Positions 49,969-52,835 of a stretch of 64,000 nucleotides of DNA are shown here, piece by piece (within the stretch, counting starts at the first letter, position 1; each line of letters begins with the position of its first letter). The stretch is taken from assembly GCF_000026545.1 (NCBI RefSeq), contig NC_011601.1. One strand, 5' to 3'. The notes beneath the pieces are model-generated. The model saw nothing but the letters and a program-made list of their open reading frames with translations, was not told the DNA's origin and made no database searches. The translations under genes and the position numbers were made by a program. The DNA is from Escherichia coli O127:H6 str. E2348/69 (GTDB lineage: Bacteria; Pseudomonadota; Gammaproteobacteria; Enterobacterales; Enterobacteriaceae).

Positions 49969-52835
49969 TCATCCACTTTACTTTAAATGGCGCGCCTCAG
50001 GAGCTAACCGTTAATCCAGGCGAAAACGTGCAAAAGCTGTTGTTTAACATGGGAATGCACTCTGTACGCAACAGTGATGATGGTTTTGGGTTTGCCGGTT
50101 CTGACGCAATTATCTTTAACGGTAATATCGTTAACGCGTCCTTGCTTATCGCCGCACAGTTAGAGAAGGCAGATATTCGTACCGCAGAATCTCTGGGCAA
50201 ATGGAACGAGTTAAGTCTGGTTCAACAGGCCATGGTTGATGTTGGCGTGGTGCAGTCTGGTTATAACGATCCAGCTGCGGCTCTGATTATCACCGATCTT
50301 CTCGATCGCATCGACGCACCTACCCGCGAAGAGATCGACGACGCGCTCTCAGGTCTGTTTAGCCGCGATGCTGGCTGGCAGCAATACTATCAGGTCATTG
50401 AACTGGCGGTTGCACGTAAAAATAATCCGCAGGCCACCATTGATATCGCTCCGACTTTCCGTGACGACCTTGAAGTCATTGGCAAGCATTATCCTAAAAC
50501 TGATGCCGCGAAAATGGTGCAGGCAAAACCCTGCTATGTTGAAGACCGCGTAACGGCTGACGCCTGCGTCATTAAAATGTTACGTAGCCCACACGCTCAC
50601 GCACTGATTACTCATCTGGATGTCAGCAAAGCTGAAGCCTTACCGGGCGTCGTTCACGTTATTACTCACCTGAATTGCCCGGATATTTACTATACCCCGG
50701 GTGGTCAGAGCGCACCGGAACCATCACCGCTTGACCGCCGTATGTTCGGCAAGAAAATGCGTCACGTCGGCGATCGCGTTGCTGCGGTAGTAGCCGAAAG
50801 TGAAGACATTGCGCTCGAAGCACTGAAGCTCATCGACGTTGAATATGAAGTGCTTAAGCCGGTAATGTCGATTGACGAGGCAATGGCGGAAGATGCGCCT
50901 GTCGTGCACGATGAACCGGTGGTGTATGTTGCTGGTGCGCCAGATACTCTGGAAGATGATAACAGCCATGCGGCCCAGCGCGGCGAGCATATGATCATCA
51001 ACTTCCCGATCGGTTCTCGCCCACGCAAAAATATCGCTGCCAGTATTCATGGTCATATTGGCGATATGGACAAAGGCTTTGCCGATGCCGATGTGATCAT
51101 TGAGCGAACCTATAACTCAACGCAGGCGCAGCAGTGCCCGACTGAAACACATATCTGCTTTACCCGTATGGACGGCGATCGTCTGGTGATCCACGCCTCC
51201 ACCCAGGTACCATGGCACTTACGCCGCTAGGTCGCGCGCCTCGTGGGCATGAAACAACATAAAGTTCATGTCATTAAAGAACGTGTAGGCGGCGGTTTTG
51301 GCTCTAAACAGGACATCCTGCTGGAAGAAGTGTGCGCCTGGGCAACTTGCGTGACCGGGCGTCCGGTACTTTTCCGCTACACCCGTGAAGAAGAGTTTAT
51401 TGCTAACACCTCTCGTCACGTAGCGAAAGTCACCGTCAAACTGGGCGCGAAAAAAGATGGTCGCCTGACGGCAGTGAAGATGGATTTCCGCGCCAACACG
51501 GGTCCTTACGGTAACCACTCACTCACCGTACCGTGTAACGGACCGGCGCTGTCGCTGCCGTTATATCCATGCGATAACGTCGATTTTCAGGTCACCACCT
51601 ACTACAGCAACATTTGCCCAAATGGTGCTTATCAGGGTTATGGCGCGCCGAAAGGTAACTTCGCTATCACCATGGCGTTAGCGGAACTGGCGGAACAATT
51701 GCAGATCGACCAACTGGAAATTATTGAACGTAATCGTGTACACGAAGGGCAGGAGTTGAAAATTCTCGGTGCGATTGGTGAAGGTAAAGCGCCGACATCC
51801 GTTCCTTCCGCCGCCAGCTGCGCACTGGAAGAGATCCTGCGTCAGGGTCGCGAGATGATCCAATGGTCTTCACCAAAACCGCAAAATGGTGACTGGCACA
51901 TCGGTCGCGGCGTCGCCATTATCATGCAGAAATCGGGTATCCCAGATATCGATCAGGCTAACTGCATGATCAAACTGGAATCAGACGGTACCTTTATCGT
52001 TCATTCTGGCGGTGCGGATATTGGTACTGGTTTGGATACTGTGGTGACGAAACTGGCAGCAGAAGTGCTGCACTGCCCCCCGCAGGACGTGCATGTTATC
52101 TCCGGTGATACCGATCATGCGTTGTTTGATAAAGGCGCATATGCCTCGTCCGGTACTTGCTTCTCGGGTAACGCTGCGCGTTTGGCAGCGGAAAATCTGC
52201 GGGAGAAAATTCTGTTCCACGGTGCGCAAATGTTGGGTGAGCCAGTGGCAGATGTCCAACTAGCAACGCCGGGCGTCGTACGCGGCAAGAAAGGCGAAGT
52301 TAGTTTCGGGGATATTGCCCATAAAGGCGAAACCGGCACAGGCTTTGGTTCACTGGTGGGAACTGGCAGTTATATCACGCCTGATTTCGCCTTCCCGTAT
52401 GGCGCAAACTTTGCTGAAGTTGCCGTCAACACGCGTACGGGTGAAATCCGCCTGGATAAATTCTACGCCTTGCTGGATTGCGGTACACCGGTCAATCCAG
52501 AGTTAGCGTTAGGACAAATCTACGGTGCCACCCTTCGTGCAATCGGCCACAGTATGAGCGAAGAAATCATTTATGACGCCGAAGGTCACCCGTTAACGCG
52601 TGATTTACGCAGTTACGGCGCACCGAAAATTGGTGACATTCCGCGTGATTTCCGCGCTGTGCTGGTGCCGAGCGACGATAAAGTCGGCCCATTCGGGGCG
52701 AAATCGATCTCGGAAATCGGTGTAAATGGCGCCGCTCCGGCGATTGCTACCGCAATTCACGATGCCTGCGGCATCTGGTTACGCGAATGGCATTTCACAC
52801 CGGAGAAAATACTCACCGCGCTGGAAAAAATATAA
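49965..52835 (+). pseudogene. xdhD: xdhD (molybdopterin/Fe-S hydroxylase, about 956 aa) interrupted by in-frame TAG at 51228-51230
   Basis: Track ORFs 49965..51230 (421 aa) and 51243..52835 (530 aa) are in the same frame, separated by one TAG plus four sense codons; combined 956 codons, the length I recall for intact XdhD. Confidence 0.8.

Follow-up and report, generated by a model that had tools for sequence, protein, structure and literature searches.

What put an in-frame stop into the xdhD gene of Escherichia coli E2348/69, and is this stop a true feature of the strain, an old one, and one with consequences for metabolism? The gene lies within a stretch of 64,000 nucleotides of this O127:H6 strain, the prototype of enteropathogenic E. 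coli (EPEC); this whole stretch is called the window in the following. XdhD is the molybdenum/iron-sulfur (Mo/Fe-S) subunit of the XdhD-YgfM urate reductase, and its reading frame is broken at codon 422 by a TAG. Our data indicate that xdhD of E2348/69 is a recent, strain-specific amber pseudogene, which very probably arose by deamination of 5-methylcytosine (5mC) at a Dcm methylation hotspot that has been hit recurrently in other E. coli.

The interrupted reading frame and its ancestral codon

The TAG occupies positions 51228-51230 within the codons CAC TTA CGC CGC TAG GTC GCG CGC CTC GTG GGC ATG and, in a single-frame translation, codon 422 is the only internal stop between 49965 and 52838. 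The open reading frames (ORFs) on its two sides, 49965..51230 (421 amino acids, ATG start) and 51243..52835 (530 amino acids, GTG start), share one common frame, and the sum of 421 + 1 + 4 + 530 codons gives exactly the 956 codons (2,871 nt including the stop) with which intact xdhD is annotated in S88, K-12, MCJCHV-1, CFT073 and FEX669. All alleles compared have this length of 2,871 nt, and since the window gene differs from the intact alleles by zero insertions or deletions, the lesion is a substitution and not a frameshift. The initial annotation of this DNA, which was made from the letters alone, had described the locus in the same way, as two same-frame ORFs separated by TAG and four sense codons, with an intact length of 956 codons and one nonsense substitution rather than a frameshift as the cause; the window sequence, the ORF list and the translation, the annotations of S88, K-12, CFT073 and other strains, and the comparison with the intact alleles agree with it on all of these points. 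For the downstream ORF, gene callers choose the ATG at 51249 (528 amino acids) over the GTG at 51243 (530 amino acids). No canonical Shine-Dalgarno motif was seen upstream of either codon when the window sequence was read, and this ORF is a remnant of xdhD and no independent gene. Chance does not account for the arrangement, given that both ORFs line up with a single gene that is intact in more than 5,160 complete E. coli genomes. The locus comprises the following parts:

49965..52835, plus strand: xdhD pseudogene with 956 codons and the natural TAA, broken at codon 422; gene for the Mo/Fe-S subunit of the XdhD-YgfM urate reductase
49965..51230, plus strand: 421-amino-acid frame that is expected to be translated and ends in TAG; comprises the 2Fe-2S domain and the a/b hammerhead and, from MoCoBD_1, the first ~67 residues
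51228..51230, plus strand: amber TAG, ancestrally CAG (Gln422); the changed base is 51228, C to T
51243..52835, plus strand: downstream in-frame remnant with the remaining part of MoCoBD_1 and the complete MoCoBD_2 (from the ORF list and Pfam)

Over its whole length, the window matches NZ_CP059840.2 from 917057 to 981056 in reverse complement without a single difference, and E2348/69 gives a 100% match to a 661-nt probe spanning the stop. Three complete assemblies, which go back to at least two sequencing projects, have the T at 51228, and so do more than 15 SRA runs that were assembled independently and are identical in DNA and flanks. A sequencing or assembly error, with the T absent from the real genome, was an alternative that had been raised from the beginning, and the restriction of the T to a single strain within the set of complete genomes would speak for it. 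However, its occurrence in so many independent data sets, and moreover in other lineages of the species, effectively refutes such an error, the probability of which we regard as negligible. In RefSeq, xdhD is labelled as a pseudogene with "internal stop" in all three E2348/69-derived records, with the locus tags H4J01_RS04570 in NZ_CP059840.2, to which the window gene is identical base for base, and BQ9544_RS17095 in NZ_LT827011.1. Locus, coordinates and lesion of the RefSeq/PGAP record all equal those of the window, and as a bare fact the lesion is already public via RefSeq, as a real but ordinary strain-specific pseudogene. In contrast, the ancestral codon, the mechanism and the population context are absent from this annotation, and a literature search found no paper linking xdhD with E2348/69.

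To place the stop in the species, we searched 5,426 complete genomes with variant-centred 41-mers, in which every 28-base megablast seed spans the variant base. The TAG version was found in 3/5,426 genomes, namely CP059840.2, "variety 2" LT827011.1 and the engineered EPEC1 LT903847.1, all of which are E2348/69 or its derivatives. The CAG version matched in 5,163 complete genomes, and a stop at codon 422 was not found in 5,163 of the 5,176 xdhD-bearing ones. Codon 422 is CAG (Gln) in K-12, S88, CFT073 and MCJCHV-1. By looking up a "repaired" XdhD protein, we also found two draft genomes that combine the E2348/69 haplotype with the ancestral CAG: L084 (GCA_001605745.1), in which 3 of 7,271 bases are unlike the window, and L082 (GCA_001265415.1). 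Within xdhD, both of them depart from the window solely at 51228, where they have C and not T. The proposal of the initial annotation that the ancestral codon was CAG is therefore confirmed in the four reference strains and in both drafts of the E2348/69 haplotype, and the stop is not a general property of reference xdhD genes, given the CAG in 5,163 complete genomes. Because the drafts of the same haplotype retain CAG and the TAG is limited to the three genomes mentioned above, the amber mutation is a recent, strain-level event. Compared to S88, the window gene is changed at 40 nucleotides but at no more than two amino acids, the stop itself being counted among them; judged from this ratio, xdhD appears to have been under long purifying selection otherwise.

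The Dcm site, recurrence of the stop and the origin of the mutation

The ancestral sequence around the changed base is GC-CCAGG-TC in S88, K-12, CFT073, MCJCHV-1 and L084, so that it is the inner C of a CCAGG that has mutated, and the change is a C-to-T transition. CCWGG is a known G:C-to-A:T hotspot via 5mC deamination, which is counteracted by Vsr (PMC13250602; PMC2715241). The genes dcm (WP_001157272.1) and vsr (WP_000786012.1) are adjacent and annotated as intact in E2348/69 variety 2. Three of the 24 CAG codons of xdhD (414, 422 and 542) have the C-CAG-G context. One of these sites has been lost silently: a synonymous single-nucleotide polymorphism (SNP) at 51587, the last position of codon 541, removed the Dcm site of codon 542 (TTC-CAG-G in S88 and K-12), and therefore this amber hotspot is gone from E2348/69. 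The three sites lie as follows, with no strand assigned:

51203..51207: second in-frame Dcm amber-hotspot site, codon 414 (CAG at 51204-51206), still intact in the window
51227..51231: former Dcm site, now CTAGG and ancestrally CCAGG; the inner, methylatable C is mutated
51587..51591: place of the third Dcm site in frame (codon 542), lost in the window

The same stop is also found on other E. coli backgrounds. For this analysis we used exact look-ups of truncated products and inspected up to 24 of the longest contigs per look-up for two protein alleles (B2-type and K-12-type), so that all haplotype counts are lower bounds. The exact 421-amino-acid product is recorded on many public contigs, most of them identical to E2348/69. 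In the contigs L007/L008, L009 and L011, however, this TAG stands in xdhD haplotypes with 43-52 SNPs relative to the window within the gene. For the K-12-type product of 421 amino acids, 10/10 inspected contigs have TAG at codon 422, distributed over about five haplotypes. Overall, the identical TAG occurs on at least nine xdhD haplotypes in public assemblies, and several carriers could be paired with a near-twin that has CAG:

Window (TAG) and L084 (CAG)
L009 (TAG) and the complete genome MCJCHV-1 (CAG): 1 difference in 7,266 nt, the C/T of codon 422
L011 (TAG) and CFT073 (CAG): the hotspot base and one contig-edge base in 6,555 nt
L019 (K-12-type, TAG) and K-12 (CAG): 2 SNPs over 5 kb

Every TAG case that was compared with its CAG twin is a shallow tip variant, with the two being 0-2 SNPs apart. 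The codon 422 stop has thus had separate origins in many further E. coli, and in each instance it is a rare and shallow variant.

Site specificity was addressed by looking up the truncated products for the three Dcm-context and for ten non-Dcm CAG codons and by counting DNA-verified internal TAGs per distinct haplotype, with the following outcome (Am, amber):

Q414(Am), Dcm context: verified internal TAG on 2 haplotypes (L038, L039)
Q422(Am), Dcm context: verified internal TAG on at least 9 haplotypes
Q542(Am), Dcm context: verified internal TAG on 3-5 haplotypes (L047-L052)
Q248(Am), non-Dcm: 1 haplotype
Q449(Am), non-Dcm: 1-2 haplotypes
Q557(Am), non-Dcm: 1-2 haplotypes
Q578(Am), non-Dcm: 1 haplotype
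Q627(Am), non-Dcm: 1 haplotype
Q186(Am), Q338(Am), Q389(Am), Q655(Am) and Q707(Am), non-Dcm: 0 haplotypes each

At least 14 TAG haplotypes at the three Dcm codons stand against at most 7 at the ten non-Dcm codons, which amounts to an about 7-fold excess per codon (binomial P = 2.6e-5); this ratio is a rough one, coming from lower-bound counts and exact products on two protein alleles, whereas the direction of the Dcm excess is clear despite the lower-bound sampling. The excess at Dcm-context codons argues for mutation bias, and not for selection on the gene, as the reason behind the recurrence.

Exact look-ups of truncated proteins turned out to be heavily contaminated by contig-end truncations, which makes a check at the DNA level necessary. 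In many contigs from metagenomes and SRA runs, the sequence breaks off right at the final codon of the product that was looked up, or 1-2 bases further on (sets L029-L037, L040-L046, L053-L056, L061-L066, L069-L076, L093-L099 and L106-L112), L105 ends in a run of N, and the protein cluster of these products mixes XdhD fragments with XanQ proteins. Raw contig counts were dropped as a measure of the hotspot, since most matches for Q248(Am), Q389(Am), Q414(Am), Q449(Am), Q557(Am) and Q627(Am) are such contig-end genes.

Amber hotspots at Dcm sites were reportedly first described in 1978 by Coulondre, Miller, Farabaugh and Gilbert, with CAG-to-TAG changes at CCAGG in lacI, and Lieb is said to have described Dcm-site amber hotspots in the cI gene of phage lambda. 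A work by Lieb from 1991 is among the references of PMC2715241. The xdhD case resembles both in context, changed base, direction, the amber at a Gln codon and site-specific independent recurrence. In contrast to these laboratory mutant collections with their dcm genetics, it represents homoplasy in a natural population and in a chromosomal metabolic gene. It is thus a clean natural-population illustration of a textbook mechanism, in which Dcm-site CAG codons collect ambers several-fold more often. Both the Dcm context and the recurrence are additions to the initial annotation, which named neither of them, nor the RefSeq flag.

Based on these data, we propose the following course of events. Dcm would have methylated the inner C of CCAGG at 51228 to 5-methylcytosine, and spontaneous deamination of this base would have produced thymine. 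The resulting T:G mismatch may then have escaped very-short-patch repair by Vsr before replication, by which CTAGG became fixed. With the change of Gln422 from CAG to TAG, translation would end after residue 421, and the 421-residue product would probably be unable to hold the molybdenum cofactor, with the loss of the XdhD-YgfM urate reductase as the presumed outcome. From the sequence context we infer both the in vivo methylation of this C and deamination, rather than polymerase error, as the cause.

Some points weigh against this interpretation. Besides the roughness of the 7-fold ratio, C-to-T transitions occur at unmethylated cytosines too, non-Dcm CAG-to-TAG events do exist in xdhD (Q248(Am), Q449(Am), Q557(Am), Q578(Am) and Q627(Am)), and the loss of function in E2348/69, although very likely, is deduced from the domain content of the truncated protein. 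Because unmethylated C-to-T changes and non-Dcm events occur, a single event is not attributable to 5mC with certainty. An ordinary replication error or the deamination of an unmethylated C, with the CCAGG context being coincidental, would be in line with the non-Dcm events in the same gene. However, such a process is difficult to reconcile with multiple independent hits at all three Dcm-context CAG codons, and only there, with CCWGG as an established hotspot and with the intact dcm of the strain, and we therefore consider it unlikely. It is also conceivable that one ancestral TAG allele was spread across lineages by homologous recombination, as E. coli recombines and the surroundings of codon 422 are well conserved in B2, where tracts of 308-482 bp are identical. 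Nevertheless, in the K-12-type carriers the T is flanked by SNPs of their own type, 40 nt upstream and 14-29 nt downstream, and the tract shared with the window is limited to 53-68 bp; L009 and L011 are unlike their CAG twins at the hotspot base (L011 also at the contig-edge base) over 6.5-7.3 kb; and the pattern is repeated at codons 414 and 542. With K-12-type SNPs flanking the T this closely, recombinational spread is not credible and was rejected as highly improbable.

Selection instead of mutation bias would drive the recurrence if loss of XdhD were advantageous in some niches. The number of independent TAG backgrounds (at least nine) is compatible with such an adaptive convergence, and so is the second lesion in the next gene of the pathway in two TAG lineages, which is an ISEc13 insertion in ygfK in E2348/69 and a ygfK-ssnA deletion in L027. 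On the other hand, it is codons 414, 422 and 542 that recur, whereas the ten equally inactivating CAG codons give 0-2 events each, and the examined TAG cases are shallow tips, 0-2 SNPs from their CAG twins. Moreover, the stop is very rare, as a single strain has it in the set of 5,176 xdhD-bearing complete genomes, and the 40 nucleotide versus two amino-acid differences to S88 point to purifying selection on the gene otherwise. Adaptive convergence is thus quite unlikely in our view, and 5mC deamination at the Dcm site remains the explanation that we favour.

Consequences for the protein and amber suppression

Intact XdhD consists of the following Pfam domains:

Residues 73-145: Fer2_2
Residues 187-298: Ald_Xan_dh_C
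Residues 355-590: MoCoBD_1
Residues 639-893: MoCoBD_2

The stop at 422 falls inside MoCoBD_1 and removes residues 422-590 of this domain together with the entire MoCoBD_2. XdhD and YgfM co-purify and convert uric acid to 2,8-dioxopurine (yanthine), the first step of reductive urate degradation, while YgfK is the enzyme of the step that follows; urate builds up in a mutant deleted for xdhD, and E606 has been assigned to XdhD's active site (PMC12507026, 2025). In the pseudogene, E606 is lost with the residues beyond the stop.

One may ask whether xdhD retains some function, either via low-level read-through of the UAG by a near-cognate tRNA-Gln, which would put Gln back, or via re-initiation at GTG 51243 or ATG 51249, with the two fragments assembling. 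The downstream frame is fully open and undegraded, a start codon follows 12-18 nt after the stop, and there is a precedent for a Mo subunit in two chains: in the nicotinate dehydrogenase of Eubacterium barkeri (PDB 3HRD), a member of the same family, the Mo-binding polypeptide is divided into NdhL and NdhM. However, NdhL aligns to residues 358-597 of XdhD and NdhM to residues 657-953, so that 3HRD is split at the boundary between MoCoBD_1 and MoCoBD_2 (around XdhD 600-650), whereas the break in xdhD lies at 422, inside MoCoBD_1. In addition, the downstream starts lack a preceding Shine-Dalgarno motif, there is no suppressor tRNA at the gln locus, and an active XdhD would still feed a pathway that is blocked at ygfK. 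The intact state of the downstream frame is explained by the very recent mutation, with 1 difference from L084 in xdhD. Partial function is therefore very unlikely. A naturally split Mo subunit was rejected as well: the break lies inside MoCoBD_1, the split is not conserved, with 5,163 genomes being intact, and neither 51243 nor 51249 is preceded by a Shine-Dalgarno motif. The same applies to programmed read-through and to recoding of the selenocysteine or pyrrolysine type, as we are dealing with a TAG in E. coli and with a stop that is absent from 5,163/5,176 genes.

The initial annotation had pointed out that an amber-suppressor background with a mutated glnV (supE) would restore the wild-type protein. 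The logic is right, since Gln is the ancestral residue, but it has no bearing on E2348/69. In both E2348/69 assemblies, the gln tRNA cluster (metT-leuW-gln; L078 18156-18749 in NZ_LT827011.1 and L113 3964-4557 in NZ_CP059840.2) encodes one tRNA-Gln with the wild-type anticodon CUG and two with UUG. A CUA anticodon was not found at this cluster, while tyrT, serU, leuX and similar loci and the rest of the genome were not scanned for suppressors. K-12, in comparison, presumably has two tRNA-Gln(CUG) genes, glnV and glnX; in E2348/69, converting the single CUG gene to supE would remove the only cognate reader of CAG at the gln locus. A 41-mer specific for supE44 matched in 157 genomes, and the 60 listed among them are mostly recognisable K-12 laboratory strains (C600, DH5alpha, DH1, J53), which validates the probe; E2348/69 is not among these 60 listed of the 157 matches. 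As with the ambers of K-12 that are suppressible by supE44 (glnV, CUG to CUA), the exact wild-type XdhD would be rebuilt by suppression, but E2348/69 differs from these strains in being without supE and in its single tRNA-Gln(CUG) at the gln locus.

The reductive urate pathway in E2348/69 and its relatives

The neighbourhood of xdhD contains further elements that are relevant for the pathway:

49189..49968, plus strand: ygfM, partner subunit of XdhD binding flavin adenine dinucleotide; intact, with 4 nt overlap with the xdhD start
52845..52870, plus strand: terminator-like GC hairpin with a T-rich tail just past the xdhD stop
43150..47807, plus strand: ygfK, split by the insertion sequence (IS) ISEc13; N-part 43150-43833, C-part 45384-47807
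43846-45219, minus strand: ISEc13 transposase gene inside ygfK

The hairpin suggests that xdhD may be the last gene of its transcription unit, and little polarity on xanQ would therefore be expected. The insertion in ygfK is a second, independent lesion of the same pathway, and consequently urate degradation would not return if only xdhD were repaired.

A second ISEc13 copy is located at 19784-21157. In E2348/69 "variety 2" (L091, NZ_LT827011.1 3176000-3186700), about 22.7 kb between the two ISEc13 copies are deleted, and the order at the junction is araE, two adjacent ISEc13 transposase genes and the C-part of ygfK. The deletion covers kduD/kduI, yqeF, yqeG, a tRNA-Gly gene, actS, xdhABC, ygeV, ygeW, dpaL, ygeY, hyuA, arcC, yqeB, yqeC, mocA and the N-part of ygfK. 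Laboratory stocks of the prototype EPEC thus differ in their content of purine-catabolism genes.

With respect to the order of the two lesions, contig L010 (GCA_049977505.1, JAAPGR010000010.1) is informative, as it combines the xdhD haplotype of the window (with few differences) and the TAG with an intact ygfK of 1,032 amino acids. L010 does not have the window-specific SNP at 47930, differs also at the window-equivalent position 52197, and has a 4-bp deletion at 53266-53269 (window-equivalent) that causes a frameshift in xanQ. This suggests that the amber mutation may have preceded the IS insertion in ygfK, with L010 possibly having branched off earlier; alternatively, L010 may have received an independent hit at the hotspot. 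Another case of secondary decay is provided by L027 (GCA_026011135.1, BRUI01000004.1; 1-1457 and 1447-7266), in which a K-12-type xdhD(Am422) is accompanied by a deletion by which ygfK (window-equivalent 43608) and ssnA (48410) are fused, the junction having an 11-bp overlap. L021, a near-twin of L027, has the TAG with both ygfK and ssnA intact. Such further decay following xdhD(Am), seen twice, would fit a relaxation of selection after the first step of the pathway has gone, and two cases are too few to argue for an adaptive loss. One could nevertheless speculate that in some gut-dwelling or pathogenic E. coli the reductive urate pathway is dismantled repeatedly, possibly as an adaptation, and that this usually starts with the hotspot amber at codon 422. 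We consider this improbable; if it were true, methylation hotspots within genes of metabolism would serve as favoured "off switches" and would bias the order in which pathways are lost.

Elsewhere in the genome, E2348/69 has other, frameshifted pseudogenes, namely ybhI (L077, NZ_LT827011.1 715469-716889), yedD and dgcQ (L079, 2064550-2064962 and 2081980-2083673), which fit a strain with a moderate load of recent gene-inactivating mutations.

What is added here to the public record is the explanation of the lesion by a Dcm site, its independent recurrence in excess at Dcm codons, and the double-null state of the urate pathway. E2348/69 is used worldwide as the prototype EPEC strain and is genetically null for both XdhD and YgfK, so that reductive anaerobic degradation of urate is not expected in this strain. 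This double null is relevant to work on purine and urate metabolism or on gut colonisation that is carried out with E2348/69.

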